A DNA stretch of 64,000 nucleotides from a virus. The DNA is taken from positions 6,432 to 70,431 of IMG/VR virus record IMGVR_UViG_3300042731_002249; one strand, written 5' to 3'. Each line of letters opens with the position of its first letter. The first letter of the stretch is position 1. The notes beneath the pieces were generated by a model. The model had not been told where the DNA came from. It ran no database searches and saw only the letters and a list, made by a program, of their open reading frames with translations. Shown in pieces: positions 11,434 to 44,473 of the stretch. The translations under genes and the position numbers were made by a program.

Positions 11434-11553
11434 ATGTTTATGTTTATACTTGGAATGGTGGCAGGTGGGCTGATTGTGGCCCTCACCCCACCCGAAATCG
11501 AAGACAAGCTACGGGTCTGGATTATCAGCCAGTGGCAAAAAGTCACCAAATAG
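11434..11553 (+). CDS. Small membrane protein (39 aa)
   Basis: AGGAG RBS; MFMFILGMVAGGLIVALTPPEIEDKLRVWIISQWQKVTK; fills the gap before the GNAT gene. Confidence 0.55.
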   Translation: MFMFILGMVAGGLIVALTPPEIEDKLRVWIISQWQKVTK

Positions 11554-11560
11554 GGGTAAA

Positions 11561-12073
11561 ATGACAACTGTAAAGATCAGACCGGCTAAGCCCTTGGACA
11601 CCTCGAATATCGCTCGACTCCTGATCGAGTGCCATGAAGGGGGAAGCGCTTACCCACCCGTTGATCAACCCACCGGAATCCGGTGGATAACACAGACCCT
11701 CACCGAAGGCTTCGTGGTTGTAGCCGATGTGTCTGGCAGGCTGGTGGGTTCACTGGCTCTTACAAACTACCAATTTCCGTGGTCACCCAAGTGGTATTTG
11801 TATTTGGAGTGGCTTTACGTGCAGAGGAAGTTTCGTAAGGGTGGAGCGTTCGAGGCGCTGTTGACAGCTGCTCACGCCTACGCTGATGAACACGATGCAC
11901 CTTTGTTGGCCGGTGTGTCAGCTGGGGATGCCAGAGTGCTGCTAAAGGACAGGATGTTCGAGCAGCACGGCTACCAGTACATCGGCGGCGACTTCATCAG
12001 GAGTGAAGCCAGTGGGCAGCAGCAAGTCCAAGAAGAAAACAACCTCGACGTACACGCCACCAGCATGGGTTGA
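11561..12073 (+). CDS. GNAT-family acyltransferase (T7 gp13-like position)
   Basis: KIRPA at the N-terminus, WLYVQRKFRKGG motif A, FEQHGYQYIGG motif B; GGGG RBS before ATG 11561. Confidence 0.85.
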   Translation: MTTVKIRPAKPLDTSNIARLLIECHEGGSAYPPVDQPTGIRWITQTLTEGFVVVADVSGRLVGSLALTNYQFPWSPKWYLYLEWLYVQRKFRKGGAFEALLTAAHAYADEHDAPLLAGVSAGDARVLLKDRMFEQHGYQYIGGDFIRSEASGQQQVQEENNLDVHATSMG

Positions 12074-13067
12074 GGACGCTTCTCGGCAAGCCATTGGTAT
12101 CGGTCGAAGCATCGGTAACCAACAGTTTAGGGCATTCGGTGGAGAGCGGGTCGCAGGGCTTTCCGAAAACGAGCGCATGGGTATGCAGATGGCCCGTGAC
12201 TCTGTTGGTGTGGGCGACCCCTACTTCGACAAATCAGCCATGTACGCTGACCGAGGTGCGCAGTCATGGACTGATGCCGACCAGTCCAAGTTCATCAATC
12301 CCTACATCAAGGGCGCACTCGATCCTGCCGCCCGTGAAATCCGAGAACAGGGGCAACGTGCCCTGACAGATGTAACTGACCGAGCTGCGTCGATGGACGC
12401 ATTCAGCGGTAGACGTTCCCAGCTCGCGCAGGCCGACATCCAAGAAAAGACCATGCAGGAGCTGGGCGACATGTATGGCGAAGGCTATGCACGTGCCTAC
12501 GAGTGGGGCGCTCAGATGTTTGGTCAGGAACGGGCGCGTGACATGGAAGCAGCTGGTCGCTTCGCCCAGCTTGGTGGGCTGAAGATCGACGCTGCCCAGA
12601 CCGACATCTCCACCCTGATGACCACTGGCGCAACCGACCGATCAATCCAGCAGGCAATGCGTGACTTCGACTGGCAGCAGTTTGTCGAAGAGCGCGACTG
12701 GGGCTTCCGACAGCTGATGGGCGTGGTCTCTGCACTGGAAGGCAGCAAGGGTTCCTATTCGACCACGCAGACCACCAAAGAGGTGGTGAAGAAAGACAAC
12801 ACGGCTGAGGTGGTCGGCGCTATTGCCCAGATTGTGTCAGCAGCTTATGCAGGCGGCAGTGACGCACGCCTCAAGACCAACATCACTTACATCGGCACAT
12901 ACATGGGCCGCAAGCTCTATGCGTGGACATGGAAGCCGATTGCCTATGCTCTGGGTCTTGCTGGCCCGAACATTGGCATCATCGCTCAGGAGAACCCGGA
13001 TGTCTCGATGCGCGGTTTGCATGGCTTCCTGATGGTCAACTACCGCGCAGCGTTTGGAGATAAATGA
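12012..13067 (+). CDS. Internal virion/ejection (pilot) protein with a C-terminal Peptidase_S74-type autocleaving chaperone domain
   Basis: GGAG 8 nt before GTG 12012 gives MGSSKSKKK; Q/A/G-rich helical body with FINPY; SDARLKTNI...GIIAQE...VNY S74 signature. Confidence 0.75.
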   Translation: MGSSKSKKKTTSTYTPPAWVEDASRQAIGIGRSIGNQQFRAFGGERVAGLSENERMGMQMARDSVGVGDPYFDKSAMYADRGAQSWTDADQSKFINPYIKGALDPAAREIREQGQRALTDVTDRAASMDAFSGRRSQLAQADIQEKTMQELGDMYGEGYARAYEWGAQMFGQERARDMEAAGRFAQLGGLKIDAAQTDISTLMTTGATDRSIQQAMRDFDWQQFVEERDWGFRQLMGVVSALEGSKGSYSTTQTTKEVVKKDNTAEVVGAIAQIVSAAYAGGSDARLKTNITYIGTYMGRKLYAWTWKPIAYALGLAGPNIGIIAQENPDVSMRGLHGFLMVNYRAAFGDK

Positions 13068-13861
13068 TGCCTACGAAAGACCCGATGGCTGGCGCACTCC
13101 CCGCACAGAAAGACCCTCGCTCACCCGCACTTACAGGCCAACCAGAATCGGTAACCGGTCAGGGCGGCATGGGCGCAGCGCTTACCGGCAACATTCCGAA
13201 AACACAGTCAATGGCACCCGCGTCACCCCCTGTAGGTAATGCTGAAGTTGGTGGCGCACCCCTGTCCAGCAACGGAGCAAATGAACAGCAGGGTGGCGCG
13301 GGAGCCAACCCCATGGCCGAACTCGATCTGGTGCAGGACCGGGGCACGCCGGAAGAGTACTGGAAAAAGAACATCAAGAATCTGGGCAGCAAAGACTCGC
13401 TGCGGCTGCTTGGTGATGCCGCTATGGGATCGTCAAGCAGGACCGGCAAGCTGGCGCAGGAAGACCCGGAAGAGGTTCGTCGCATGGGTACGCGCATGAA
13501 CGAGGCGATGGGACTTGGTGACCCTGAGCAGCAGGATGCCATTGTCGAGAGCATGATCTTCAAGCCCATGCAGGACTCGATTCAGTATGAAGTCCAGAAG
13601 GGTGTCATTGACGAAGACGAAGGCGTGATGCGCATGGCCATGGCGATGGCGAATGTGCAAGGCGCGGCAGACGAAGACGAACTGGCCAGCATCCTTGGCG
13701 AAGCTCGTGCCCGTATAAAGGGGATAATTGGCCCGGAAGGAGAGCAGTTTGTTGACTTTGTTCAAGGGGCAAAGGAATTCAATGATGAATTGGAAAGCGG
13801 CAACAAGCTGAAAGATTACAACTCGATGAGACGACCGCGACCTCAGCGGAGGGAACAGTGA
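13064..13861 (+). CDS. Putative internal virion protein
   Basis: Lies in the ejection-protein cluster; coupled start; low-complexity N-terminus and helical C-terminus. Confidence 0.6.
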   Translation: MMPTKDPMAGALPAQKDPRSPALTGQPESVTGQGGMGAALTGNIPKTQSMAPASPPVGNAEVGGAPLSSNGANEQQGGAGANPMAELDLVQDRGTPEEYWKKNIKNLGSKDSLRLLGDAAMGSSSRTGKLAQEDPEEVRRMGTRMNEAMGLGDPEQQDAIVESMIFKPMQDSIQYEVQKGVIDEDEGVMRMAMAMANVQGAADEDELASILGEARARIKGIIGPEGEQFVDFVQGAKEFNDELESGNKLKDYNSMRRPRPQRREQ

Positions 13862-14919
13862 TGGCTATTGGCGCACTTCCAGAAGAAGAGCTTGAGCAGG
13901 GCGGCGCACTGACACCGCAACCGGGTGACGTAGATGTTGGCGCTGGTGCTGACCAGATGGCGGCACTGGAGCTTGCTAAACGGTCTGAAGAGACCGGCAC
14001 CATGATCGAGGACCCAGCGGCGCTGGCTGAGTACAAGCAGAAGCGAGAGCTGGAGCGCAGCGTCGATGAGGCGTTCGCACGCCGCAAGGATTACAACCGC
14101 GATGGCAAGAAGGACAACCTGTGGCAGCGCTTCAAGGGTTGGGGCAGTCGTGCGTGGAACAAAGGCAAAGACGACCCACTGACTCCTGAGCGCGAGGACA
14201 AGACCGAAGAGGTCACCAAGTTCATGGGCGGCATGACCCGGCAGGAGCTGTCGATGTTCCTGTTCGAGTGGGGTGGCCTGATGATGGCGAACTCAGAGAA
14301 GGGTCTTGGCGGTGCCGCTGGTGCCGCTGGTCTCGGTGCGATGCAGGGTCATCAAGGACGGCAAGCGCTGGCACTTTCTACCGAAGGCGAAGCGCAAGAG
14401 CGTGCATTGCGTGAGCGAGAAGTCTCAGCCAAAGAATACGAAACCAAGGTCGGAAAGAATAACGAGTTGCTGGAGCGTATTCGTCAGCCAGATGGTTCGT
14501 TCAGGTGGGAACCTGTAACGGACAAGGACGGCAAAATCATCACAATCAAGGACCCCGGCAACAGGCCGTACCAAGGTCAGGGAGTCTGGGAGCAGTCACA
14601 GTGGCAAGAGCTTGGCTATAGCGATGACATGATCGCTGAGATTCAGCAAGGTGGTCTGTCGCCATCGGCCATGTATGACCGGATGCACGAAGACTTGTTG
14701 CAACAGAAAGCTCGCGCTCAGGAAAAAGAGAAGATGAGTCAGCTGCCGGATAACATGAAGCAGAAGATCGAAAACCTGAACGGCGAGATGGTGCCGATCA
14801 CAACGATCTCGAACAACGAGCTGGCGAAGATTGCAAGAAGAGATGCGGATTTCGCGCTTGGGCAGCGCGGCGCATTAAGGCCGAATGCACCGAAGCGTGG
14901 CGAAGACTATATCCAGTAG
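13858..14919 (+). CDS. Putative internal virion/ejection protein
   Basis: Position; GLGGAAGAAGLG glycine-zipper segment followed by coiled coil. Confidence 0.6.
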   Translation: MMAIGALPEEELEQGGALTPQPGDVDVGAGADQMAALELAKRSEETGTMIEDPAALAEYKQKRELERSVDEAFARRKDYNRDGKKDNLWQRFKGWGSRAWNKGKDDPLTPEREDKTEEVTKFMGGMTRQELSMFLFEWGGLMMANSEKGLGGAAGAAGLGAMQGHQGRQALALSTEGEAQERALREREVSAKEYETKVGKNNELLERIRQPDGSFRWEPVTDKDGKIITIKDPGNRPYQGQGVWEQSQWQELGYSDDMIAEIQQGGLSPSAMYDRMHEDLLQQKARAQEKEKMSQLPDNMKQKIENLNGEMVPITTISNNELAKIARRDADFALGQRGALRPNAPKRGEDYIQ

Positions 14920-14929: not shown

Positions 14930-17900
14930 GTGGCAGACTACACCCGCGAACAGCTGGAGGACGCGATTGAGAGAGCGCGTGCCGACAATAACCCTTCGGC
15001 TGTTGCCGAGCTGGAAGACATGCTGTCGAAGCAGCAGGGGGCACTTCCGGCTGACTACGTGCCCGGAAAAAAGACCGCTGAGATAGAGGCTCAGTCTGAC
15101 CCGATTGGCCCAGCCCTTATGGGGCCACCCGCTCCTACCGAGCAGCAACTTGATCAATCTCTTGATGCGCGGCAAAGCCGTGCGCTGGCCGAGCAGAAGG
15201 TAGATTACCGCGACCCGGAACAATACGCGGCGGCGGGTAAACGTCAGCAACAGCGTGAGCGTGAGCTGGCCCAAAGCCAGTACGAGGCAGACATGGAATT
15301 GGCCAGAGACCCGGCCAACCGTCCAAACCGCGCTCAGATGAACGAGTTCATCAAGGACAACACCAACACCCGGTACGGCGCAAGCATGGTCAATTCCATG
15401 CGCCAGCAGATGATCGTTGATCCGAAGACCGGCAAGGTTCGCTGGACAGCGATGGACCCGGAGATGATGGACCGCATTGATGATGCCGGAAAAACAACTT
15501 TTGGTGCCATTGGTCAGCTTGCCTATGGTTCAACGCGAGGTGTCGGTGCTGCGCTGGAGAACAAGGAAGCCGAGATCGCATCTCGGAACGCCTTCCAGAG
15601 TTTTCTGCTGACCAGCGAGAAGGGTCTGCCGAAGTCGGAGCAGGAACGTATTCTTGCTGGGCTTGCCGAGCGATATGGCGAGGACCACCGCTTCGTCAAG
15701 AATCCGGGCGAAGCACCGGCCAACGAGGTCATGAAGCTGCTTCAGCAGAACCCTGATTATGAGCAGGAGCTGGATCGCATTAAGGGTGATGAGTGGTGGG
15801 CAGAGCGCAAGGAGTTCGCCAAGCGACTTGGCAACCGGGCAAGCGCACTGATACCCGGTATGCCGCTGAACATTTTCGGCGCTGATGAAACCATGGGAGC
15901 GCTGACAGGACGAGGCGCATTCGAGGGGATCGAGTACGACGAGGGTGAAGTAGCCCCGGCATACCCCGGCGCATCGATGGACCTGCGCGAGTGGAAAGCA
16001 GAGGCCGAGAGAAGCCCAAGCATCTACGAGCATGTCGTGCTGCCACTGGTAACGCGGCAGTCTGGAAAGACACCGGGGCAGGTGGCCAGCGAGGGTGCTG
16101 ATAACCTGCGCAAGGCGTTCACCACCGAAGAGCAAGAGGCTGAGCGCAAGATGCCCTTGCTCAATCCTGACAAAGAGATCGAAGGGCTGAAGACGTTCTT
16201 TGAGCTGGACACTTACACGAACCCAGAATCAAAGATTGCAAACCCAGAGTCGCTGTTTTTCATGTTCCTTGAAAACCTGCCAGAGATGGCAGGCAGCATG
16301 TTGCTGACTCGTGGCGCTGGTGCCGCTGCTGCACGCAGGGCTGCTGGTGAAAGCTATGGCATGTCGGCCACGGCTATGAATGCGGCTCGTGAGAAAGCAG
16401 CACAGAACGCCGGTATGTTGGTTGGCGGTGCCAGCGAAGGGCTGCTGGTTGCTACGCACCTTGAGAAAGAAACACGCGACATTCTCGCGCAGATTCCTGA
16501 AGAGACGTGGCAGAAGCATCCGCTTTATCAGGCGTACCTCGAAGCTGACATGACCCCAGAAGCTGCCAAGCAGCTGATGATTCAGGACGCTGCCAGTAAA
16601 GCGGCGACCACCGCTCAGGTAATCACCATGCTGACCGGCGCACCGATGAATCGGTTTGCAGCAAAAAGCGCAGCAGGTCGATTGATTCAGGAAAGCCCAG
16701 CAGCACGTCGCACTGTTGGCATGGTTGGTGAGCCGGTGACTGAGGCCGGTCAGGAAGTCATGGAGCTGTTGCAGACTGAGGCGGCAGTTCGTCCTATTGA
16801 TCCTGACAATCCGATCTTTAAGGACCCCAACCGGTACTGGGAAACCGGGCTGTCGGCATTTATTGTTTCAACCCCCATGGGCGCGTATGCAGCGTTGGAG
16901 CCGTCTCAGCCGGAAGGTATTCCCAAAGAGCATGTGGACGCAGCACGTGGTGCCGTCAATTTCAAGAAGGCGACCAACGAGCGCTTCATCTTCGAGGCGA
17001 AGATCACCGACCCAGAATACGTAGCGAACACCTCGCCTAACCAGCGCCTGCAAGACCTGTCGAAGCTGGAGTCGCTGCAACGGGCAGAGGCTCAGGCCAT
17101 CCTCGATGCTGAGCCAGCCATGCGCACGTTCCTCGAAGGGCAGGGAACAAAGACGGCAGAGACTGAGCTAAAGATGCTCAACCGTCTGGTAATGCGTGCC
17201 AACGCGATGAAGAACGACATCGCAGTCGCTGAGTCACGGCGCACGACAGCCGCTGAGATACAGGATGCTGAGCGTCAGGTTCTGACGGACAGGGCTGAGC
17301 TACAACGCAAGGTCAACGAGAACATCATCAAGCTCGAAGACATTGAGCGGATGACCGGTGCCATCGAAACTGTGCAGGACCTTGGTGCAATCAGCGCCGA
17401 GCAAGAAGCTGAATTAGCCAGAGAGGGCTACGCCAGACGCACGAAGGAAGGCAACCTTGTGATCACGCCGAAGGGCAGGCGTGCCACCAAGGAGCTGAAT
17501 CGTCAGGCCCGTGGTTTGCGTAGCCGCATCGAGGGTGGTTACACAGGGCCAGAGCGTCGTGCCGACATGGTGCGCCGCGAAGCTATCGATGCCGGTGGTC
17601 CACAGCAGCGTGAGCAACTGCTGTACAGCGATCCTCTGACCGAAGTGCAGAACCGTCGCGCCTTCAATGAGCGGCAGGAAAACATCGATGTCAAGGGCGA
17701 TCAGGAGCCAGCGCAGATCGAGAACGCGATGCCAGCGGTCGCCAGCGTCGATATTGACTCTCTGAAGTGGGTCAACGACAACATGACCCACGCTGCCGGG
17801 GATCGGCTCATCACGGCTGTCTCAGACGCTCTCAGCGAACAGCAGGGCGTAGAGGTGTATCGCATGGGCGGCGACGAGTTTGCGGTCGCTGGTGCGTCTC

Positions 17901-20900
17901 AGGAGGCGCTGGAGACGGCCCTACAGGCCGCAGCCCAGAAGCTATCCGAGACCCCCATCGTTGCCGGAAACGACGAGGTAACGCCACAGATTACGTGGGG
18001 CAAGGGCGAGACCTACGCTGAGGCCGATGCTGAGGCCATCGCCATGAAGGGCGACCGGATTCGCCGGGGGGTGACAGCAGACCGAACAGGCAAGCCTGCC
18101 ACGTACAAAGTGCGGTCACAGGGTGGCTTGTTCCAGATGGACACGGACAGGGAGCTACCCGGTTCATGGAATCGAATCAGGAACAGCGTCAAGAAGGGTG
18201 ACATCGTTGAAATCCTCACGCCAGACGGCGCGACCTTTGGGCTGGTTCGCGCTCAAACGCGCAACCGTGGCAGGCCAAGAATATACGTTTCGGTACAGGG
18301 CAAGATATTCAAGTTCAACCCTGACAAGAATCACCTGATCGTAGACAAGTTCACTACGCCATCTGACCTCGCATGGATCAGCGGCGATGCTGAGTATGCT
18401 CAGCCGGGTCGTGAGACTTTCCCGCAGACCCTTTCCGATGTGCGCATAGGTCACATAGGCGATGCTACTGGCAGCTGGTATGCCGATCTCGACAAGGATT
18501 TGGATTACACGGTTCCTGATCCATGGTGGGACATGGAACCCGGCTGGTCTGATCAGGGCTTCGACAAGAAGGTTTTCGGTGTCAAGCCGTTGCCGGTCGC
18601 CAGTGACGAGCAGATGGAAGAGGCGAACACGGTTGCTGCCGAGCTGACGCAGGACTACAACAACCTGCCGCCAATCCATATTGTGCAGAGCTGGGAACAG
18701 CTTGAGGCCGACGCGCCAGACATCGTAGCGCAAATCAGAGCCGAGGGTGGCTCACCAACCGGCGTGCGCGGCTACATGGATCACCTTGGCCACACCGGCA
18801 TCTACATCATCGTGCCGAACATTCGGGCGATTGCTGGCGCTCAGAACTTCAAGCAGTCGCTGGTAGAGACGGTCATGCACGAGATGATCGGTCACTATGG
18901 CGTGCGCGGATTCTTTGGAGACGAGATCGAGCTGCGTGAGTGGATGCACCAGACGGTCGATATGTTCCCGCAGCTGGCCAGACACTTCTCTGGCAGGCTG
19001 GGGCTGAACATCGCTGACCCGGCAGACAAGCAGCTGCTAGGCGAAGAGATGGTCGCCTATGTCGCTGGTGAAGTGTATGCAGGCAAGATCGCTGACCTCA
19101 CGCCGAAGCAAAAGAGTTTCTGGCAGCGCTTCGTTGCATGGGTGAAAGAGTTTATTCGGCGCAAGGGCTGGGACAAATACGCGCCGCTGCGCAAGGTCAC
19201 ACGCGAGAACATCAACGACACGAAGGTCGAGTTCTGGAACGACGAGCGCATCGCTGAGCTGGTGTCCAGAGCGCAGGACTTCGTGCGTAACGGAAACGCT
19301 TTCGAGTGGCGTGCGATTAACGGCAGCTCGATTTTGTACATGCGTGACGGCGACATCTTCCAGTCAGGCGTAGTCACCGCCATCATGACCGGAACCAAGA
19401 AGCTGAGCCGCAACGAGCGCAACCAGCTCAAGGGCAAGTACGGTGGTGATATTCAGAATGTGCCGAAAGAGACGGCGCTGTTCCCTGACGAGGCATCACC
19501 GAACGCCTACAAGCAGGCGATCATCGAAGCGAAGAAGCAGGGCTACGTTACAGATCGTGACCTTGAGCTGTCTGGCTTGTCGGAAAGCTCCGACTTTTTC
19601 CTGTTGCAGGACGGCACCTACGGCACGCTGGAGACATACGTCGCCCAGATGAACGGCGGCAATCTTCCTGAGCGCTGGTACGCGAATTATCTGCCGAAGA
19701 ATCTGGTACAAGAGCTGGACGACATCAACGCTGCGATGGAGAAAAACTACATTGCAGGCCCACTGATGCACCAAGGTTATGAAGGTGGGTACGATGGCGA
19801 AGAGAGGGTGTATCAGTTCCCCGACAGGCCGGTCACCAACAAGACCAGTGCTGATCTCATGCGCACGCGCATCTCCGAGATCATGGCCATGAAGATCGAT
19901 CCGAAGAAAGCGCGGCTTAGCAAGGAACTGTTGCTGGCGCACATGACTTCGCAGAACGTGTTCCGTGTCTACGTGGAGCAACAGGGCGGTAACCCGCGAA
20001 TCACTCAGGATCAGGCGATACAAAGAGCGCTTGGTCAAGAGGCGTATCAGGAAATCATCAACGGCGAAAGAAACCTCACCGATGATGAGAAGGAAATGGT
20101 CAACGCCGAGAAGAAGGCAGCGCAGCAGCGCGGACCATGGATCGGTTACGACGAAGAGCAGGACCGCTGGCTCGACTGGAATGGTTACCGTGAGGGATAC
20201 AGCGAGTGGGCACCGCAGGGATCGCGATACACGCGGGATTATCGAATCGCGCTCATCAAGACCGCAGGCAGAGGCGGCGAGATGGGCATGGGCAACCATT
20301 CGCACTTCGATAAAAACTTAGTCCACATCCGAACTGGCGAAGCCGAATTGCTTGACCCGGATCAGATGGACATGTCGTCGGAGATGACGTGGCCAAACCC
20401 GGACAAGCGAGGCAAGCTGCTGTCGTTGATCGAGCTTCAGTCGGACTGGTTGCAGGCGCTACGTAAAGGATTTACCAGCGGCAACGAAAAAGATCAGGCG
20501 CAGCAAAAGATTCGCGATAACCGAAACACCCTGCAAATGGTTGGCAACCAGATGGGCCTGAACATCGGTGAGGACTTCTACGAGAAGGCCGTCGAGATTG
20601 TTACGCCGCTGGCAAACCTGCCGTCCAATGTTCGTGGTGATGCGCGAGGCCAGCTGTTCAACGATCTTAACGAGCGCACCAAGACGATGTTCGGTGCCGA
20701 GTGGTTCGATGATCGCATCACGGATGATAACCGACAAAGTGCGTGGAGAGCCTTTATTCAGGACAAGCTGAATGAGGCCGCGCAGCCGCTGATCAAAGCC
20801 CGTGACGAACTTCAGATATGGATAGACAACCTGCCGAAGATGGACCAACTGGCGGGTGGTGTTGATGCCAGAGCATTCGAGGCATTAGATGCCGTTGCCG

Positions 20901-23900
20901 CACGTCGCATGGGCAACGTACTCAGGGGTGAGTTAAACCAGATCATTGACCAGATGACCAACAACATGGCTTATGCGCAAAGCCAGACTGAGTTTGTTGA
21001 GCAGGCCAATTACCTGAAAGGCATGATCTCGCAGCGGATGAAGACGCTGGCGAGTGGCAGCGAATACGCTGACGGACTGCGCCTGCCAATGACGCAGTAT
21101 CTGATCAAGCCAATGCTTGACCAGCTATATGAAACCATGGGCCTAAACACGGCTAAGGTTGCTGAGTACATGTCGGCTCTGACCTTGCGTGAGCAGGCCA
21201 CGGTGCGCATCCCTGCGCAGACCTTGAAGGATTTGCTGACATCGATGCAGAGCCAGATGGACCTGACTGCGCTGGTAGAGGAAATGGTCAACGGCGCACG
21301 CATCAGCCGACATAGCGACATTCCACCGGGGCGGTTGTTGATGCAGCCTGTTAGGGCTGGCGACAAGTTCGTTGACGTGAAAGTGACTGGCAACAAGGCT
21401 GACGTAGCTAAAGCCAAAGACTTGGTGCCGAAGTTGATTGATACGTGGATCAGTAATCACGCAGCAGACAAGCTAAAGGTCAACCATCGCGTTAGGCGTG
21501 GTGCCGATGACTGGCTGCGCGACCCAGATGAATACACGTACCGCGATCTGGTAGATGAGCTGGCTCTGGAAGAGGGCGACATTGAAGAAGGTGACAGCCT
21601 TACATCCGATTATGGAGTCACCACGTTCTATCAGTTCGAGGAAAACGAACTGCCTGAGATTGAATCTGAGTTATTGAACGATGCCTTCGACAACATCAGC
21701 GAAGAAGAGTGGAACAGCCTTGATGATGATCACCCCGGCGTTGGTCGTGGCGGCGACACTTATCGTTCCGAGCTAATCGTTGATGAAGACGGTGACGTAG
21801 ATAACGATCAAGCAGAGCGCAACCTGTCGTCAGCGCGTGAAGACTATCGAGTCAACGTACTGCTGGACGACGAAGACCTGCGGATGCAGGCATACGATCA
21901 AATTCGAGAACTGTGGTACGAACGTGGCCCGACAGCTGTTATCAGTGGCAGCTTGCCGGTGCAATGGGATGAAGACGGCGAACCAACCGACTACGTAAGC
22001 GTCATGATTCTCGCCAAAGAACCCGGTGATGCTTATGACATTATCATCGACGGCGAAGAGATGGACTACAACTACAGCCTCGATGACTCAAAGGGAGGTT
22101 TGTCTCGGCAGATATACAACTACTACGACAACGAAAACATCAAGCCGCCGCCCGGTTCCCTTATGGGTCCAGAGCTTTTGGAGCGACCGCCGACAGCAAA
22201 CATTCCTGAGCCGAACTGGGAAATTGTAAAGGGCAACATCATGGAGAACCTGTCCATGATGAGTGACAAGCCGGTGGAAATGTCCAAGCTGTTTGAGGAA
22301 ATGGTCACGCTGGAGAAAAAGAGCGGCGTGTATCAGGACTCACCACTGAGCAAAGATGAGCTGTGGCGACCGATTGCCCTGAAGTACCTGATTGCCGACG
22401 CAGTGCGTCGTGGTCTTGGTGGCGTAATGTGGAACAACGGTTTGTCATCGTCATCCCGTGGCGGCTGGACTATGGACATCCGTCCATCTGAGCGCATCAC
22501 ATGGTCGAAAGAAAAGGTTGAGATTCGCGGCGAAGAGAAAGAGGTCTACCTGATTCATCAGCCAGACTTTTCGTCACCGCTGGTTGTTGACCCGAACAGG
22601 ATGGCCCCTGTCGTTGGCTACAACGTGGCCACCATGATCCGCAAGCAAGAGCAGGGCAAGCTGGAGATGCCAGAGGTCAAGCGGCGTGACGCTGACGAAG
22701 AGGTCGCTGATCCACGAGACAACTACATCAGGGCAGGAACGCCGAGCGGACACATCGCCGTCTACCGCCGCTCTGACAACGAGTTCCTTGGCTTTGCTGA
22801 GGACGAAGATGCGGCAACTTCGCGCATCTACGAGGACCTGCGTAATTACGGCAGGGAGTTTATTCCTGATCGCCCCACAGACCCGACTGCCATAGAACAA
22901 GTCGAGGCCATGGGCGAGGTTATCTCGCGTGGCACGATCACTCAGGAAATGGTTGGCGCACCAATTTATGTCGCTGGCCGGGGTAACGTGCGTGGATACT
23001 CGCACACGTTGGCGCAGCCACGAGCAGTTAGCGCTCGTCAGTCTTATGAAGACATCACGGTTCGCTTGTTCAACAAGGAACTGAAAAAGTACGGCACGTA
23101 TATCCAAGAGACTTACGTCAAGGCGAACGATCTGCGCAAAGCCAAAGCAGAAGGTCAGCCTATCGCACCAAACCTTGAGCGCGAAGAAAAGATCAAGGAA
23201 GAACACGGTCGCTTGTTTGTCGCAGAGACCAGTGGGCCAGTGCATCACTGGATCATCATGAGCGAGAAGAAAGGCCCCATCGTCAACGATGTGTTCGACA
23301 ACCGAAGTTATGCCGAGGATCGTCTTGCGTCATGGATCGAAGACAACTACGGCACTGACGCTGCTGGCGTGCGGGTCATGTACTTCCCGATCACTGAGCA
23401 AATGCGCGAAGAGTTCTCTGGGCCTGTCGCCCCGTTCCATTATGACCCGAACGAAGACCCGGTACTCAAGGATGTAGCGAAAAAGATTGGCCCAGCCAAT
23501 CGAATGCCGCTGACCGAGCGTGCCAAACAGTTCCGCATGGGCATTGGTGCCGAGATGCGGCAGGGCATGGTGGACAAATTCTATGGTCTGAAGAGAGCGT
23601 TGCGAGAAGCAGGTGTGGACGATGGCGCTTATATCAGCGCACGCCTGACGACTTCGCTCGACTCGATGATGAAGGCCGTGCTGTTTTACGGTCACCCAAC
23701 ATGGAAAGACGGCATCATGCAGACCGAGGGTCGCGGTTTGATGGACGTGCTGACCCCCATCCTGAATGACCCAGATACATGGGGCATGTACATGGCAGGC
23801 AAGCGTGCGAAGGGCTTGCTGCTGGAAGGCTACGACAACCTGACCCCAGAGCAGCAGGCAAACATCGATGCAGCTGCCGAAGCGTTAGCCGAGAACCGTG

Positions 23901-26773
23901 GGAAGCGCCACAAGGAACACATGGACAACGTGTTCGAGTTGTTGGTCGCCCATACGTCTGATCAGATGTTCCGTCACTACGAGGTGACGGCTGACAGGTT
24001 TACAGAAGACGATCTTGCTGGATTGTCTGAGCTGGAGAAGGAATACCTTCCGATCTTTCTCCCGCACATGAAGAAGAGTCAGGGCAAGATCAAAGCGAAG
24101 AATCGACCACGCTCTGGACGCTGGCGTGTCTGGGACTGGCGCAAGCCTGACACTCGCAACACACCAGAGAACATCGATCTCAAATACAAGCAAGGTGAGC
24201 GCTGGTTCCGTGAGCGCGGCGTGACTGACACCAAGCAGGCACGAGCCAGCATGGACAAGGTGACCGAGGTCATCCTGAAAAAATCGGCTGAGTTCGACGC
24301 TCGTCAAAGACAGGTAGCAGAGTCTCGAAAGGACGTTGACAAAATTGCCCAAAAGGGGCGTGAGCATTTATTCGAGGCTCACGAGATCAAGGCGATGGTT
24401 GCTCTGGGTGATAAGTTCCCGCACTTCGAGAGGGTGGCCAAAGACTATGCCGAATTCAACAAGAAGGTGCTGGACTTTGCTGAGGCATCGGGCTTAATCG
24501 ATCCAGAGTCACGCAAGACATGGGAGAATGCTGATTACGTTCCGTTCTACCGCGTCGATGATGACCGGCTGGTTGGTTCAGGTATGTCACCGCAAGCTGG
24601 TATCTCGAACCAGCGTGCGCCAATCAAACGCTTGAAAGGTGGTGAGGCCAACGTCAACGACATCGTTGCCAACATCTTCATGAACACCACCAAGCTGATC
24701 GATGCTTCAGTCAAGAACAACGCGGCACTGGAAGCGATTGATGCGCTGCGTGGTTCTGGCATTATCCAGAATCAGCCCCTTCCATACGAACAAAAAGTCG
24801 TTCCGACTGCACAGATCAAAAAGATTCTTATCGACAGGGGGGTGATTGTTCCTGACGACGAAAAAGGCATACACCTGAGTGACATCCCGCAGGGAGCATT
24901 GGATGGTTTCTCGAAGATGTTTGCGGTAACCGCGCCGTCAGGTCCGGGTGATATTGCTGTCATGCGCAACGGCAAGCGTGAGTACTACCACACTGACGAC
25001 ATGCTGTTGTATCGGGCGATGACCAACATCAATCGCAAGCAGTTTGGTGAGTGGATCAACATGTTCCGCGCACCGAAGCGATTGCTGACTACGATGATCA
25101 CGATTGATCCATCGTTCATGGTCGCCAACTTCATCCGCGACACAGGCTCAGCGTTTGTCATTGGCAGAGACCAAGGGAACATTCCAGTGCTATCGGCGCT
25201 GAAGGGTTTCAACAAAGCGTTGTTTGAGAGCGAAGAGCTGCGCACTATGATGGCAGCAGGTGCTGCGTTCGAGAACGGATACGTCACTGGCGGTGATCCG
25301 CGTCAGGTGGAGCGCATCATCTCTGAGGCCGTAGATGCAACGATCCTGAATACGCCGAAGAAGCTGCTCAGGGCATGGATGCACATTGGCTCAGCGGTCG
25401 AGAACTCGAACCGTATTGCCATTTTCAATGCGGCACTGAAAGCTGGCAAATCGATTAAGCAGGCAGCGTTCGAGGCCAAAGACCTCATGGACTTTTCCAT
25501 GGGCGGCGACTGGGCCGCTGTGCAGTTCCTGATCCAGACTGTGCCGTTTATGAACGCACGGTTGCAGGGCCTGTACCGACTTGGCCGTGGAGCGGTTGAG
25601 CATCCGGTTAGCTTTACTCTCAAGGGGATGCTGATTGGCATGGCTGGCATGGCCGTCTACTTGATGTTCAAGGATGACGAGCGCTACAAAGATTTGGAGC
25701 CATGGGATAGGCAGGCGTACTACCACTGGTGGATTGGCGATGTGCATTACCGCTTGCCGAAACCATTCGAGGTCGGCGCGATTTTCAACACGATCCCCGA
25801 AATCGCGATGGACTATTACAACTCGAAAGAGACGGACGCAGGCAAGGTGTTGTTGCGCGAGTTTGGCCACATGCTTGGTGAGACGTTTAGCATGAACCCG
25901 ATTCCGCAGACGGTCAGGCCGCTGGTTGAATCTGGCATCAATTACAGTTTCTTCAAGCAGTCACCGATTGTCAGCTATTACGAGCAACAGCGTCTGCCAC
26001 CTGACCAGTATCGCTATCGAACCAGCCCGTTTTTCATTGAGGTTGGCAAGCGCCTGCCATCAGAGTTGGACACCCTAAGCGGCAAGATCAGGTCACCGCT
26101 GCACTTACAAAACCTGTGGGCTGGGTACACCGGCACCATCGGTCGTTACATGTTGCAGGGCGCTGACTATCTGGTGACCCGCTCCCTTGATTACCCGCTG
26201 CCGCCAGCCATGGAGACGCAGGATATTCCTGTTTACGGTCGGTTCGTTCGTGGTGATGATCCGCAGCGAGTGACCAAGTATCAGGGAGAGGTCTACAGGC
26301 TGCTTGAAAAGACTACAGCGATCCAAGGCTCACTCGCGTTTCATGAGAAGCAGGGCAACGTCGAGGAATACCTGAAGACTCACTCCGAATATGAGCCATA
26401 CATTCGTGCCGCCGAACCACTGAAAGATGTTCGCGATCAAATCCGTGAAGTAAACACGGCTATCCAAATGGTCTACCGGAACACGGAGATAAGCAGGGAA
26501 GAGAAGGACACGCAGATAGATCAGCTGGAAGAGGTCAAGAACACCCTGTTCAAGGAAGCATGGAAGCTGCGTCCGGGTGGTGAATACAATCCGCTGGATG
26601 CAGAGCCAGTATCGAAAAACCAGATCATCAACATGATCGAAAACTGGGGAACGGAAAGCGTTGCACAGCGCATCCAAGATAGCGCACCTGACACGGCGCG
26701 GCTGCTGAAGATCGTGGACGAAAACTTGAATGCGAAACAGTTGGCCTCGCTGGCCAGAGTAGGAGAAGAATAA
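14930..26773 (+). CDS. Giant (3947 aa) internal virion/large polyvalent protein with GGDEF, zincin-like, split GNAT-like and LPD38-like domains
   Basis: GAGG RBS; last gene of the ejection cluster before the endolysin; DPLT..NRRAF/DID.LK.VND/HAAGD/RMGGDEF; HEMIGH; C-terminal Y.DL..WDR..Y.H...RLPKPFE.G (LPD38-like). Confidence 0.85.
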   Translation: MADYTREQLEDAIERARADNNPSAVAELEDMLSKQQGALPADYVPGKKTAEIEAQSDPIGPALMGPPAPTEQQLDQSLDARQSRALAEQKVDYRDPEQYAAAGKRQQQRERELAQSQYEADMELARDPANRPNRAQMNEFIKDNTNTRYGASMVNSMRQQMIVDPKTGKVRWTAMDPEMMDRIDDAGKTTFGAIGQLAYGSTRGVGAALENKEAEIASRNAFQSFLLTSEKGLPKSEQERILAGLAERYGEDHRFVKNPGEAPANEVMKLLQQNPDYEQELDRIKGDEWWAERKEFAKRLGNRASALIPGMPLNIFGADETMGALTGRGAFEGIEYDEGEVAPAYPGASMDLREWKAEAERSPSIYEHVVLPLVTRQSGKTPGQVASEGADNLRKAFTTEEQEAERKMPLLNPDKEIEGLKTFFELDTYTNPESKIANPESLFFMFLENLPEMAGSMLLTRGAGAAAARRAAGESYGMSATAMNAAREKAAQNAGMLVGGASEGLLVATHLEKETRDILAQIPEETWQKHPLYQAYLEADMTPEAAKQLMIQDAASKAATTAQVITMLTGAPMNRFAAKSAAGRLIQESPAARRTVGMVGEPVTEAGQEVMELLQTEAAVRPIDPDNPIFKDPNRYWETGLSAFIVSTPMGAYAALEPSQPEGIPKEHVDAARGAVNFKKATNERFIFEAKITDPEYVANTSPNQRLQDLSKLESLQRAEAQAILDAEPAMRTFLEGQGTKTAETELKMLNRLVMRANAMKNDIAVAESRRTTAAEIQDAERQVLTDRAELQRKVNENIIKLEDIERMTGAIETVQDLGAISAEQEAELAREGYARRTKEGNLVITPKGRRATKELNRQARGLRSRIEGGYTGPERRADMVRREAIDAGGPQQREQLLYSDPLTEVQNRRAFNERQENIDVKGDQEPAQIENAMPAVASVDIDSLKWVNDNMTHAAGDRLITAVSDALSEQQGVEVYRMGGDEFAVAGASQEALETALQAAAQKLSETPIVAGNDEVTPQITWGKGETYAEADAEAIAMKGDRIRRGVTADRTGKPATYKVRSQGGLFQMDTDRELPGSWNRIRNSVKKGDIVEILTPDGATFGLVRAQTRNRGRPRIYVSVQGKIFKFNPDKNHLIVDKFTTPSDLAWISGDAEYAQPGRETFPQTLSDVRIGHIGDATGSWYADLDKDLDYTVPDPWWDMEPGWSDQGFDKKVFGVKPLPVASDEQMEEANTVAAELTQDYNNLPPIHIVQSWEQLEADAPDIVAQIRAEGGSPTGVRGYMDHLGHTGIYIIVPNIRAIAGAQNFKQSLVETVMHEMIGHYGVRGFFGDEIELREWMHQTVDMFPQLARHFSGRLGLNIADPADKQLLGEEMVAYVAGEVYAGKIADLTPKQKSFWQRFVAWVKEFIRRKGWDKYAPLRKVTRENINDTKVEFWNDERIAELVSRAQDFVRNGNAFEWRAINGSSILYMRDGDIFQSGVVTAIMTGTKKLSRNERNQLKGKYGGDIQNVPKETALFPDEASPNAYKQAIIEAKKQGYVTDRDLELSGLSESSDFFLLQDGTYGTLETYVAQMNGGNLPERWYANYLPKNLVQELDDINAAMEKNYIAGPLMHQGYEGGYDGEERVYQFPDRPVTNKTSADLMRTRISEIMAMKIDPKKARLSKELLLAHMTSQNVFRVYVEQQGGNPRITQDQAIQRALGQEAYQEIINGERNLTDDEKEMVNAEKKAAQQRGPWIGYDEEQDRWLDWNGYREGYSEWAPQGSRYTRDYRIALIKTAGRGGEMGMGNHSHFDKNLVHIRTGEAELLDPDQMDMSSEMTWPNPDKRGKLLSLIELQSDWLQALRKGFTSGNEKDQAQQKIRDNRNTLQMVGNQMGLNIGEDFYEKAVEIVTPLANLPSNVRGDARGQLFNDLNERTKTMFGAEWFDDRITDDNRQSAWRAFIQDKLNEAAQPLIKARDELQIWIDNLPKMDQLAGGVDARAFEALDAVAARRMGNVLRGELNQIIDQMTNNMAYAQSQTEFVEQANYLKGMISQRMKTLASGSEYADGLRLPMTQYLIKPMLDQLYETMGLNTAKVAEYMSALTLREQATVRIPAQTLKDLLTSMQSQMDLTALVEEMVNGARISRHSDIPPGRLLMQPVRAGDKFVDVKVTGNKADVAKAKDLVPKLIDTWISNHAADKLKVNHRVRRGADDWLRDPDEYTYRDLVDELALEEGDIEEGDSLTSDYGVTTFYQFEENELPEIESELLNDAFDNISEEEWNSLDDDHPGVGRGGDTYRSELIVDEDGDVDNDQAERNLSSAREDYRVNVLLDDEDLRMQAYDQIRELWYERGPTAVISGSLPVQWDEDGEPTDYVSVMILAKEPGDAYDIIIDGEEMDYNYSLDDSKGGLSRQIYNYYDNENIKPPPGSLMGPELLERPPTANIPEPNWEIVKGNIMENLSMMSDKPVEMSKLFEEMVTLEKKSGVYQDSPLSKDELWRPIALKYLIADAVRRGLGGVMWNNGLSSSSRGGWTMDIRPSERITWSKEKVEIRGEEKEVYLIHQPDFSSPLVVDPNRMAPVVGYNVATMIRKQEQGKLEMPEVKRRDADEEVADPRDNYIRAGTPSGHIAVYRRSDNEFLGFAEDEDAATSRIYEDLRNYGREFIPDRPTDPTAIEQVEAMGEVISRGTITQEMVGAPIYVAGRGNVRGYSHTLAQPRAVSARQSYEDITVRLFNKELKKYGTYIQETYVKANDLRKAKAEGQPIAPNLEREEKIKEEHGRLFVAETSGPVHHWIIMSEKKGPIVNDVFDNRSYAEDRLASWIEDNYGTDAAGVRVMYFPITEQMREEFSGPVAPFHYDPNEDPVLKDVAKKIGPANRMPLTERAKQFRMGIGAEMRQGMVDKFYGLKRALREAGVDDGAYISARLTTSLDSMMKAVLFYGHPTWKDGIMQTEGRGLMDVLTPILNDPDTWGMYMAGKRAKGLLLEGYDNLTPEQQANIDAAAEALAENRGKRHKEHMDNVFELLVAHTSDQMFRHYEVTADRFTEDDLAGLSELEKEYLPIFLPHMKKSQGKIKAKNRPRSGRWRVWDWRKPDTRNTPENIDLKYKQGERWFRERGVTDTKQARASMDKVTEVILKKSAEFDARQRQVAESRKDVDKIAQKGREHLFEAHEIKAMVALGDKFPHFERVAKDYAEFNKKVLDFAEASGLIDPESRKTWENADYVPFYRVDDDRLVGSGMSPQAGISNQRAPIKRLKGGEANVNDIVANIFMNTTKLIDASVKNNAALEAIDALRGSGIIQNQPLPYEQKVVPTAQIKKILIDRGVIVPDDEKGIHLSDIPQGALDGFSKMFAVTAPSGPGDIAVMRNGKREYYHTDDMLLYRAMTNINRKQFGEWINMFRAPKRLLTTMITIDPSFMVANFIRDTGSAFVIGRDQGNIPVLSALKGFNKALFESEELRTMMAAGAAFENGYVTGGDPRQVERIISEAVDATILNTPKKLLRAWMHIGSAVENSNRIAIFNAALKAGKSIKQAAFEAKDLMDFSMGGDWAAVQFLIQTVPFMNARLQGLYRLGRGAVEHPVSFTLKGMLIGMAGMAVYLMFKDDERYKDLEPWDRQAYYHWWIGDVHYRLPKPFEVGAIFNTIPEIAMDYYNSKETDAGKVLLREFGHMLGETFSMNPIPQTVRPLVESGINYSFFKQSPIVSYYEQQRLPPDQYRYRTSPFFIEVGKRLPSELDTLSGKIRSPLHLQNLWAGYTGTIGRYMLQGADYLVTRSLDYPLPPAMETQDIPVYGRFVRGDDPQRVTKYQGEVYRLLEKTTAIQGSLAFHEKQGNVEEYLKTHSEYEPYIRAAEPLKDVRDQIREVNTAIQMVYRNTEISREEKDTQIDQLEEVKNTLFKEAWKLRPGGEYNPLDAEPVSKNQIINMIENWGTESVAQRIQDSAPDTARLLKIVDENLNAKQLASLARVGEE

Positions 26774-27204
26774 TGCCAAGGTTCGGAACAAGATCGCTGC
26801 GTGAGCTGAGTACCTGCTGCCCTGAGATCGTGGAGACCCTGAACGAGGTGATCAAGGAATACGACATCACCGTACTGGAGGGCAGGCGTTCGTGGGAGCG
26901 GCAGCGTGAACTGTTGAATCAGGAACCACCTGCAACCAAGGTCGGGCCGGGTGAGTCAAAGCATAATCCACCGACCGAGGGTGACACCACGTGGCTGTCC
27001 AATGCCGTCGATGTAGCGCCGCACCCGATTGACTGGGATGATGCGAAGCGCTTCATCTACATGGCAGGCATTATCATTGGCACCGGCAGGGCGCTGGGCC
27101 ACAATTTCCGCTGGGGCGGCAACTGGGACGAAGATCAGGTCATCCTCGATGATCAGAACTTCGATGACCTTCCACACTTTGAGTATCTGGGGCCAATCGA
27201 ATGA
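26773..27204 (+). CDS. Endolysin, M15-family L-Ala-D-Glu peptidase
   Basis: EGRRS.ERQ, SKH, AVDVAP, RWGGNW and DLPHFE Zn-peptidase motifs. Confidence 0.9.
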   Translation: MPRFGTRSLRELSTCCPEIVETLNEVIKEYDITVLEGRRSWERQRELLNQEPPATKVGPGESKHNPPTEGDTTWLSNAVDVAPHPIDWDDAKRFIYMAGIIIGTGRALGHNFRWGGNWDEDQVILDDQNFDDLPHFEYLGPIE

Positions 27205-31943: not shown

Positions 31944-32142
31944 CCTCGAACTCCTTGGTCTGCATCAGGAACTCATTCAGCCTGCCGTAGTCTTGCAGGG
32001 CGCACGTTCCTACATTGGGCAGGAAGTCATCAACGACCGCCCTGCCCATTCTGACCAGCTCTTTCAGCCGCTCAATTTCCATGTCCTTCTCGGTGAGCGC
32101 TTTGCGGGTGCCGGTTTCAGTTACCTCAAAGTCAGGTGTCAT
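31930..32142 (-). CDS. Hypothetical protein
   Basis: Start MTPDFEV with GGGAG RBS; overlaps both neighbours. Confidence 0.55.
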   Translation of the reverse strand: MTPDFEVTETGTRKALTEKDMEIERLKELVRMGRAVVDDFLPNVGTCALQDYGRLNEFLMQTKEFEDGNE

Positions 32143-33082
32143 TGCCTTCTCCCGTATCCAGCAGTGCCGTTCGCATCTTCTTGTACGTGATGCGAGCCTG
32201 CACCTGATCCTCTTCGCTGAGGAACTTCGCAGCCTTGGCAGCATCGAGCAGGTCAGCCATGCTGTCGCTCTGGTGCATGGCGCGTTCGACGCTCGACAGC
32301 GTTACCTCTTCGACACCATCACCGAAGACCTCACGTGCCTGATCGAGTAGCGGGTTGCTTTCCGCTGGCTGCTCCTTTTCAGGCAGCTTGTAGTCAGTCA
32401 CAGGCGGCGGCGTATCATCGTGGTCCTGCATCTCTTCCACCATGCCCAGACCCTTGAGCAGGTCAGGGTAGGCATCGCGCAGGCAATACGAACGGGCACG
32501 CATCTGGAGCATCCGCGTGGGGTGCTTCTGCCAGTTGAACTTCGTGTGGATGCCTGCCTGTACGGCGTTGTCCATGGAATACGAAGCGCTAATTGGTTTC
32601 GGGTCACCTTTACGTTGCGTTGTGCAGGTGGCAGTCAATCCGTCCTCAGAGATTGTCTCCTGAATCCATTCGCACTTACTTGATGCTCTTACGACACCTA
32701 TCAATCCATCACCGTACAGGCAGGGCTTTCCGTCGATGACAGCGATGGACTGGATCGCCTGAAACGGCTCCATGCCCAGCTCTGCCCCCATGTTGATCGC
32801 CACGAAGCAGTCGTTCGGTCGGCCACGGTAAGCATCTGGCACAAGGTTCGACTGTGCCAGCGTGTGCGCGATGCGCTTGGCGATCTCGAATTTCTGGAAC
32901 TCCGGGTTGGCGCTGATCAGGTCTACCTGATACGTCGCTTGCGGAGCGTCCGCTTCGATCACGTCAAGGTGTTCGCGTTCGTCCTCGAAGTTCATTACCT
33001 CATCAGCTTTCTTGGCTGCGGTTTTTTTCTTCGCGGCTTTTTTCTTGGTGACCTTTTTCTTGCTTGCTTTCTTAGTCGTCAT
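32132..33082 (-). CDS. RecT/Redbeta-like single-strand annealing protein
   Basis: SNLVP.AYRG.P, G.ELGM.P.QA.Q.I.VI.GKP, W.KHP.RML..RA...CLRDAYPD; adjacent to YqaJ. Confidence 0.85.
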   Translation of the reverse strand: MTTKKASKKKVTKKKAAKKKTAAKKADEVMNFEDEREHLDVIEADAPQATYQVDLISANPEFQKFEIAKRIAHTLAQSNLVPDAYRGRPNDCFVAINMGAELGMEPFQAIQSIAVIDGKPCLYGDGLIGVVRASSKCEWIQETISEDGLTATCTTQRKGDPKPISASYSMDNAVQAGIHTKFNWQKHPTRMLQMRARSYCLRDAYPDLLKGLGMVEEMQDHDDTPPPVTDYKLPEKEQPAESNPLLDQAREVFGDGVEEVTLSSVERAMHQSDSMADLLDAAKAAKFLSEEDQVQARITYKKMRTALLDTGEGNDT

Positions 33083-44153: not shown

Positions 44154-44188
44154 AAAAAAGCCCCCCGGCAAACGTGTTACCGAGGGGC
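44154..44188 (-). terminator. Intrinsic terminator after the tRNA pair
   Basis: GCCCCTCGG...CCGGGGGGC followed by T6 on the minus strand. Confidence 0.75.
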
Positions 44189-44195
44189 CGGAATT

Positions 44196-44282: not shown

Positions 44283-44283
44283 T

Positions 44284-44369: not shown

Positions 44370-44403
44370 AGTTTGTGGCCGGTCAGTGCCAACCACGGAA
44401 CGA

Positions 44404-44431: not shown

Positions 44432-44438
44432 CCCCCTT

Positions 44439-44467: not shown

Positions 44468-44473
44468 TCGACC

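Follow-up and report, generated by a model that had tools for sequence, protein, structure and literature searches.

Does a phage carry a ready-made second-messenger synthase into its host as part of an ejected virion protein? The question is raised by the 64,000-nucleotide stretch analyzed here (the window), which comprises bases 6432-70431 of one 70,431-bp IMG/VR virus record (IMGVR_UViG_3300042731_002249) rated 100% complete by CheckV. One of its genes encodes a giant protein of 3947 amino acids (aa), which belongs to a podovirus-type phage with a genome of roughly 70 kb, and an earlier note on this DNA had proposed that the protein contains an intact GGDEF diguanylate cyclase that is packaged and injected with the phage DNA. 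We found that the GGDEF domain is present in the giant protein, complete and probably catalytically competent, while we infer its packaging, ejection, product, and benefit. Taken as a whole, the reading that we prefer, namely a packaged and ejected diguanylate cyclase that lacks product feedback and forms one cargo of a giant internal virion protein, is tentative, and our confidence in it stays slightly below an even balance; the interpretation given in the earlier note was partly supported.

The GGDEF domain and its active site

The Pfam GGDEF model (PF00990) matched the giant protein with an E value of 7.8e-12 and a score of 45.7 bits against a cutoff of 23.8, the alignment spanning profile positions 3-131 of 161, and when the complete 70,431-bp genome was searched in six frames, it was the sole GGDEF domain found (E = 3.1e-15, 51.8 bits). 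When phmmer was run against PDB sequences, 42 diguanylate cyclase chains were matched, the best being MorA at 1.8e-9. As summarized in Table 1, all motifs that had been quoted for the domain, which the earlier note placed at 17545-18065 (residues ~873-1045), were found in place. In PleD, magnesium ions are held by D327 and E370, guanine is bound by N335 and D344, K442 and R446 of the last helix are the phosphate-binding Lys and Arg, and the lysine K332 contacts phosphate through its main chain only (PMC7288161). By motif register, the equivalents of these residues would be D941, D982, N949, D958, K1040, R1043, and S944/L945/K946. The Hypr subclass of GGDEF proteins, which makes cyclic GMP-AMP (cGAMP), is marked by a change of D344 to Ser (PMC7288161), and residue 958 was found to be Asp, not Ser. 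Thus, D958 at the position of PleD D344 argues for guanine, as had been read from the HAAGD motif. The inhibitory RxxD site (I-site), an optional regulatory feature that is not required for GGDEF membership, is not present in the domain: in phmmer alignments to PDB cyclases, QQGV sits exactly at the RxxD register, 9 to 6 residues ahead of GGDEF, and the claimed loss of the I-site was therefore upheld.

An AlphaFold2 model of residues 860-1090, built with a 28-row alignment, showed a confident GGDEF fold, with a mean predicted local distance difference test score (pLDDT) of 84.9 and core blocks at 93-98. Foldseek comparison of this model with the PDB yielded 98 matches at E ≤ 1e-3, and the matches listed are GGDEF domains, including those of SiaD, a T. 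maritima cyclase, DosC, WspR, DgcZ, PleD, and others. Isolated GGDEF-domain chains aligned to the model with target-normalized TM-scores of 0.59-0.70 and root mean square deviations of 3.5-5.1 Å. The GGDEF hairpin was placed between model strands E115-121 and E124-129, K1040 and R1043 fell on model helix H170-187, and a disordered insert of 17-25 residues (~residues 913-937) lay between helix 1 and strand 1. This loop is variable among relatives, three of which (P0020, P0021, and P0033) carry there an insert with a proline run (GRGPPPPPG). Profile search (hidden Markov model) and structure prediction thus both bore out the domain, and that it is a real GGDEF domain we regard as virtually certain.

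The domain is preceded by a conserved extension. Its motif, G-[YF]-[TA]-G-x-[ED]-[RK]-R at 17537-17578 (residues 870-883), stands ~25 residues ahead of the GGDEF domain, and two of its arginines, R877 and R883, were invariant in 42 full-length relatives and were kept in 64 and 60, respectively, of 72 giant proteins (those of at least 2000 aa). The motif also occurs in polyvalent proteins of other architectures, and a role in substrate contact, as a regulatory site, or as a cleavage site is possible. The earlier note had described a long coiled coil and a GPERR linker in front of the domain. GPERR was confirmed, but the coiled coil was only weakly supported: residues 861-898 of the AlphaFold2 model form short broken helices and no single long helix, and in a crude heptad scan of our own over the protein only residues 771-807 were mildly heptad-like, with a score of 0.48 (protein-wide 95th percentile, 0.44; 99th percentile, 0.52). 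On the other side of the domain, ~15 residues past its last helix, a Q-x-G-L-F-Q sequence (18116-18136, residues 1063-1069) is kept in most close relatives; the HExxxH peptidase candidate located nearby (described below) might process the protein there.

Next, the conservation of the domain was evaluated. With residues 880-1060 as the query, a length-restricted search gave 38 long homologues, and in 32 of these GGDEF and LPD38 occurred together. Over 32 full-length homologues, the mean identity of residues 951-1000 was 71%, equal to that of the LPD38 region and higher than that of most of the protein. An exhaustive profile-free search returned 56,169 matches at E ≤ 1e-3, 519 at ≤ 1e-10, and 13 at ≤ 1e-30, with giant proteins numerous among its best 150 matches. 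For a residue census we used 183 domains, a set that includes same-cluster members and one cellular multidomain protein (P0034) and in which 72 proteins are at least 2000 aa long. These giant proteins retain D941 (71/72), D943 (70/72), N949 (72/72), G981 and D982 (71/72 each), and E983 (72/72); the positions of G-D-E-F are kept in 68-72 of 72, and the last-helix residues K1040 and R1043 are present in 68 and 63, respectively. Residue 958 is D in 65 proteins, N in 5, T in 1, and S in 1. In 20 of the 72 (P0009, P0014, and others), Ala replaces K946, the DSLKW lysine at the position of PleD K332, the remaining active site being intact, and this change would be compatible with activity if only the main chain matters. 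Of the 66 giant proteins in which a GGDEF-type motif could be recognized, 3 had RxxD in register, versus 38 of 108 other proteins.

On a FastTree tree of the 183 domains, the label "giant" required 19 changes, compared with a mean of 56.8 after shuffling and with none of 500 shuffles as low; the GGDEF domains of giant proteins are clustered on the tree, yet they do not form one clade. The N-terminal, HExxxH, and C-terminal modules described below are common to 42 of 71 proteins of at least 2000 aa, the giant protein included. The subtype was then sought in IMG/VR by the pattern D[SG]L[KA]W[VI]ND, with open reading frames (ORFs) counted from stop to stop and several cut by locus ends. The 63 contigs with this subtype had it in an ORF of at least 2000 aa (42 contigs), 1000-2000 aa (13), 400-1000 aa (2), or less than 400 aa (6), and ten of them showed the same C-terminal module (single-sequence phmmer, E ≤ 1e-30). 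This GGDEF subtype, with DSLKW[VI]ND, without RxxD, and with the ERR extension, seems to be specialized for phage use. We consider it likely that the domain makes a nucleotide product, and that this product is cyclic di-GMP (c-di-GMP) is a somewhat weaker but still favored expectation.

The carrier protein and the surrounding genome

Pfam recognized two domains in the 3947-aa protein, GGDEF and, within a conserved C-terminal module, LPD38 (PF18857), which agrees with the LPD38-like C terminus suspected earlier; beyond these two, no Pfam domain was found when the giant protein was searched in five pieces at E values up to 10. The only strong transmembrane-like segment stands just before LPD38 (Table 1). 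A tblastn search with residues 3301-3947 matched 256 phage records, all at less than 60% identity, and the phages with this C-terminal module include Stx, Ralstonia, Vibrio, Pelagibacter, and Bacillus phages, with annotations such as "DarB-like antirestriction." A megablast search with the giant gene against the phage collection gave no match.

The N-terminal module is homologous to a portion of the N-terminal domain found in the virion RNA polymerase (vRNAP) of phage N4. A match to phrog_2206, "virion RNA polymerase" (E = 2.7e-9), was confined to residues 426-829, and a family profile of residues 400-860 matched residues 279-441 of N4 gp50, a part of the N4 domain, with 35.3 bits (hhalign, 95.2%). 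The N4 link was seen with profiles only, and tblastn of residues 400-860 against the phage collection gave no match. The polymerase domain of N4 was not found: a phmmer search of N4 gp50 against the proteins P0001-P0039 aligned consistently only N4 residues ~240-520, three further stretches reached domain E values of 0.12 or worse, and profiles of the HExxxH and C-terminal regions had no significant match to N4 gp50. We therefore rejected the identification of the giant protein as a virion RNA polymerase, since the match is limited to the N-terminal region and the polymerase domain is without one.

Downstream of the GGDEF domain lies a putative zincin-like metallopeptidase region, in which H1317, E1318, G1321, H1322, E1372, and E1373 were invariant in 42 full-length relatives. 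Iyer et al. 2017 (PMC5512222) describe the HExxxH form of the motif for one clade of peptidases in polyvalent proteins. AlphaFold2 modeled the region with a pLDDT of 72.5 and with three strands ahead of the motif helix; VIA-align gave weak similarity of this model to YbeY-type and zincin-like chains (best Z, 5.0-5.7), Foldseek found no match to it in the PDB at E ≤ 1e-3, and a phmmer search of the PDB with residues 1051-1800 yielded chance-level matches only. The GGDEF domain and this candidate are the only recognizable enzymes in the giant protein. Further along, H1792, H1799, R1801, E1835, and Q1837 form an invariant polar cluster (20303-20440, residues 1792-1837), which had no match in Pfam, the PDB, or the ESM Atlas (the last searched with residues 1640-1900) and which, to go by its conserved residues, could mark a further unrecognized enzymatic domain.

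With several unrelated domains, LPD38, and ejection and lysis genes as neighbors, the carrier is by its sequence features a polyvalent internal protein of phage type. Delivery of the protein is supported by the homology that its modules at both ends share with proteins for which packaging or ejection is known (compared below), and by this analogy we hold it to be likely that the giant protein is in the virion.

The giant gene was said to be the last of the internal-protein cluster, and this proved correct, as it follows the phrog_4287 ejection protein gene and two ORFs and is itself followed by the endolysin gene (Table 1). Farther neighbors, located before the acetyltransferase-like gene, encode virion and tail-fiber-like proteins. 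The large terminase and portal genes occupy 56880-61063, from where the structural module runs on round the arbitrary start of the record.

Table 1. Coordinates of the giant gene, its modules and motifs, and its neighbors in the window
Feature	Nucleotides	Residues	Strand	Remarks
Acetyltransferase-like gene	11474-12073		+	Upstream, internal-protein cluster
DNA ejection protein gene	12003-13067		+	phrog_4287
Two ORFs of no assigned function between ejection protein gene and giant gene	13064-13861, 13858-14919		+	
Giant polyvalent internal/ejection protein gene	14930-26773	3947 aa	+	GTG start, open for 3947 codons
N-terminal module	16205-17416	426-829	+	Related to N-terminal domain of N4-type virion RNA polymerase
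Conserved extension before GGDEF	17507-17626	860-899	+	G-Y-T-G-P-E-R-R; low pLDDT
GPERR		873-877		Motif in the extension
GGDEF domain	17627-18070		+	Pfam match, residues 900-1027; last helix (K1040, R1043) reaches residue 1047
DPLT		901-904		
NRRAF		908-912		
DIDSLKWVND	17750-17779	941-950	+	Metal-binding D941 (and D943), K946, guanine-binding N949
HAAGD	17789-17803	954-958	+	D958 at guanine-specifying position (PleD D344)
QQGV	17840-17851	971-974	+	In place of RxxD inhibitory site
GGDEF active-site hairpin	17867-17881	980-984	+	
MKGDRIRRG		1039-1047		
Putative zincin-like metallopeptidase region	18632-19279		+	HEMIGH (HExxxH), 18878-18895; E1372 and E1373, 19043-19048
Conserved C-terminal module	24944-26566	3339-3879	+	Includes LPD38
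Hydrophobic, transmembrane-like segment	25607-25669	3560-3580	+	Kyte-Doolittle
LPD38 (PF18857)	25676-26233	3583-3768	+	E 3.5e-34, profile positions 1-188 of 189
Endolysin gene	26773-27204		+	Directly downstream; ATG overlaps stop codon of giant gene

Several other features of the window were recorded. The small terminase ORF (44174-45118) is ~12 kb away from the large terminase gene (56880-58643), and the same separation is described for Bcep22-like phages in the JC1 paper (PMC9144972). Two tandem tRNA-Tyr (GTA) genes at 44196-44369 on the minus strand overlap the 5' part of this ORF, which is on the opposite strand, and its true start is therefore probably farther downstream. For two large ORFs of 683 and 847 aa (51036-55644, plus strand), located 1.2 kb upstream of the large terminase, neither PHROG nor Pfam gave a match. 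The recombination genes RecT and YqaJ are present at 32132-34040 on the minus strand, and a gene for a collagen-repeat protein is found at 46648-47613.

Proposed ejection and activity, and the alternatives

On the reading that we prefer, the giant protein would be laid out as an N4 vRNAP-like N-terminal module, the GGDEF domain, the HExxxH peptidase candidate, ~1700 unassigned residues, and the LPD38 module with the hydrophobic segment. It would be made late, with few copies packed in the capsid, and would be the last of the ejection proteins to leave, either ahead of the DNA or together with it. Perhaps freed by the peptidase candidate, the GGDEF part would then enter the cytoplasm and pair with a second copy, and it would convert GTP to c-di-GMP without feedback, ahead of any phage gene expression. 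By an order-of-magnitude estimate, one molecule per cell of ~1 fL amounts to ~1-2 nM, and therefore a few uninhibited enzymes at ~1 turnover per s could reach an effector-relevant concentration in minutes, unless host phosphodiesterases keep pace. The pay-off would likely be early host takeover or counter-defense, as for other cargo domains of such proteins, and candidate benefits are a block of motility or pili, a block of superinfection, a surface change, and counter-defense. For activity of the GGDEF domain in the newly infected cell, we see the chances as evenly poised.

Several observations weigh against this reading. The C-terminal end of the domain departs from a canonical GGDEF domain, because the Pfam alignment ends early, at position 131 of the 161 in the profile, and the last strand is rudimentary in the model, and the putative phosphate-binding pair K1040/R1043 has a K+3 spacing compared with K+4 in K442/R446 of PleD. 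Synthesis of c-di-GMP requires two GGDEF domains, and the upstream heptad signal is weak; when two copies of residues 700-1070 were modeled as a complex together with GTP and Mg, the score was 0.00, which speaks neither for nor against dimerization. As possible links between the product and a phage function, PilZ and EAL domains were looked for in the phage and not found, and an Rfam search of the window plus the initial 6600 genome bases turned up no riboswitch for c-di-GMP. The sole hint at a host comes from the closest relative among species genomes, which is 56% identical and lies on a contig of 64,954 bp that binning had placed with a Desulfuromonadales metagenome-assembled genome, and binning of phage contigs is weak evidence. 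Our literature searches found no biochemical, proteomic, or infection datum on the giant protein or its GGDEF-bearing relatives. Activity in the producing cell is inseparable from activity after ejection, as the protein would be synthesized late in a GTP-containing cytoplasm. The GGDEF part might also be absent from the virion if it is cut off before packaging, by analogy with P1 DdrB, a polyvalent protein that is cut before packaging as cited in Iyer et al. 2017 (PMC5512222).

Other readings have to be weighed on the same evidence. The cyclase could do most of its work late in infection, inside the cell that produces the phage, its presence in an ejected protein being incidental, and might change surface, aggregation, or lysis behavior as the giant protein accumulates before packaging; the position of the gene in a late structural operon next to a lysis gene fits this, an enzyme without an I-site would already act in the GTP-containing cytoplasm, and lysogens of Bordetella phage LK3, which has a stand-alone GGDEF gene, show hyper-biofilm formation, an indirect result in that the gene itself was not tested (PMC8471281). 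However, the domain is almost always inside giant proteins of the packaged type, as seen in the 42 of 63 IMG/VR contigs against the 6 of 63 with an ORF below 400 aa, and its fixed place right after the vRNAP-like N-terminal module in 42 full-length relatives suggests that delivery matters, and we regard late action in the producing cell as rather unlikely. A little less probable still is that the domain is catalytically silent and belongs to the ejection machinery as an element that binds GTP or has a structural role, such as a sensor of arrival in the cytoplasm or a refolding aid. Degenerate GGDEF domains that act as GTP-binding sensors exist (PMC7288161), and the atypical domain end and the lack of an established dimerization element would agree with such a role, yet the motif itself is not degenerate, and the full catalytic set (both metal-binding acids and GDEF) is kept down to ~30% identity, which is unexpected for a mere binding module.

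It is also conceivable, at about the same low level of probability as late action in the producing cell, that the synthase is active but that its relevant product is not lifestyle c-di-GMP. Acting at injection, it would jam cyclic-nucleotide immunity of the host, with a different cyclic or linear oligonucleotide, such as cGAMP, cyclic di-AMP (c-di-AMP), or pppGpG, or with c-di-GMP itself as a decoy or competitor, and with cyclic oligonucleotide-based antiphage signaling systems (CBASS), type III CRISPR, or guard systems of the Panoptes kind as targets. Polyvalent proteins mostly carry counter-defense cargo, and interference of this sort was proposed by Iyer et al. 2017 (PMC5512222). Proteins related through the C-terminal module, JC1 gp69 among them, bear the annotation of a DarB-like antirestriction protein or of a methylase, and the stand-alone GGDEF protein gp43 of phage MP1412 adjoins a KlcA antirestriction gene. 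Among the 72 giant relatives, 7 have another residue at the position of the guanine-specifying Asp, Ser being the Hypr change, and palm-domain relatives make other dinucleotides, e.g., 2',3'-c-di-AMP by OptS of Panoptes (PMC12657218). In the domain analyzed here, however, N949 and D958 make up the canonical pair of guanine determinants, and it is ordinary diguanylate cyclases that match best in sequence as well as in fold. A broader proposal is that the GGDEF group present almost exclusively in giant ejected phage proteins acts as a virion-delivered "signal jammer," i.e., a feedback-free synthase that works in the first seconds, before transcription, and achieves counter-defense by making a messenger; its dinucleotide would block, saturate, or mis-trigger host cyclic-nucleotide immunity or surface remodeling, and the ERR extension and the HExxxH peptidase candidate would form an activation-on-arrival device. 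Taken jointly, these ideas are improbable in our estimate, to the same degree as a catalytically silent domain. Known phage sponges and nucleases remove or sequester host signaling nucleotides, and a synthase would be their mirror image.

If the preferred reading of a packaged and ejected cyclase is true, an injected, ready-made second-messenger synthase would alter host behavior or defense before the first phage gene is read, which would be a different tactic. The family makes a test practical, with at least 42 proteins of the same architecture, 63 IMG/VR contigs, conserved catalytic residues, and a systematically absent I-site. The boundaries (residues ~860-1070) are defined well enough for expression, and the homology to N4 and to virion proteins supports delivery.

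Comparison with known systems

Cellular cyclases such as PleD, WspR, DgcZ, DosC, and SiaD have the same fold and active-site residues as the phage domain. Their dimerization is under the control of sensor domains and an RxxD I-site is common among them, whereas here there is neither a recognizable sensor nor an I-site, and the phage domain differs further by the disordered insert described above and by its shortened C-terminal end.

Siphophages of Yuavirus and Vojvodinavirus encode GGDEF proteins that stand alone, which tblastn matched in 89 phage records at ~36-40% identity. Those of MP1412 (gp43, 156 aa), Bordetella FP1, and LK3 are of the same subtype, with DSLKW[VI]ND, SGDEF, and AD..K..R and without RxxD; the Yuavirus protein MP1412 gp43 keeps DSLKWIND. 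In contrast to the giant protein, they are small free proteins encoded in an early or host-interaction region and not in virion operons, and both the ERR extension and a portion of the domain middle are missing from them. A GGDEF-KlcA fusion in Pseudomonas phage BL8 was considered and dropped, since the translation of the annotated coding sequence does not align with the GGDEF domain; the tblastn match at 5001-5396 overlaps the "anti-restriction protein" coding sequence at 5161-5901, and the GGDEF frame seems to be unannotated.

The carrier belongs to a class of giant podovirus proteins, members of which were detected in virions by proteomics. N4 gp50 (Schitoviridae) is the third ejection protein of that phage, present in 4 ± 1 copies, and is ejected, refolds, and is active in the cytoplasm (PMC13434306). 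It resembles the giant protein in size (3500 versus 3947 aa), in a genome of ~70 kb, and in the homologous part of the N-terminal domain, and the giant gene ends an ejection-protein cluster; the cargo here is a GGDEF domain and not an RNA polymerase. The C-terminal LPD38 module is shared with the "DarB-like" protein JC1 gp69/Bcep22 gp75 and with gp47 of Stx phage phi24B. Burkholderia phage JC1 gp69, with LPD38 at residues 4195-4401, was detected in CsCl-purified virions with 51 unique peptides and the second-highest score (PMC9144972), and its gene lies, in a similar order, between structural and lysis genes, with an acetyltransferase gene (gp63) a few genes upstream. phi24B gp47 was detected in virions by mass spectrometry and proposed to be an ejection protein (bioRxiv 10.64898/2026.04.10.717836). 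The cargo given in these accounts differs from that found here, being lytic transglycosylase, methyltransferase, helicase, and LPD3 for JC1 gp69 and LPD5, LPD1, and MuF-C peptidase for phi24B gp47, with no GGDEF reported for either.

The earlier note knew of no characterized example, and this held in that our full-text literature searches found no experimental test of a GGDEF-bearing polyvalent protein, the nearest result being the biofilm phenotype of LK3 lysogens. As a prediction, however, an arrangement of this kind is not new. Iyer et al. 2017 (J Bacteriol, PMC5512222) named GGDEF among the domains of polyvalent proteins, listed LPD38 as specific to the phage type, and proposed, in a purely computational study, that such proteins interfere with host nucleotide signaling when delivered at invasion. 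GGDEF in polyvalent proteins is thus already described, and the figures or supplement of that paper may already list the GGDEF and LPD38 architecture. Their example from Acetonema longum (WP_004096050.1) is of the same type as the protein analyzed here, a giant multidomain phage protein with GGDEF, a zincin-like peptidase, and LPD domains, and it adds an SNF2 ATPase, a methyltransferase, and ART, whereas here GGDEF is accompanied by the HExxxH candidate only. GGDEF was termed "not very widespread" in that paper, compared with the 42 of 63 IMG/VR subtype contigs with an ORF of at least 2000 aa and the 42 proteins of the same architecture found here. Beyond Iyer et al., the present analysis shows how large and coherent the family is, that nearly all of its members lack the I-site, that the ERR extension is conserved, and that the N-terminal module is homologous to N4 vRNAP.

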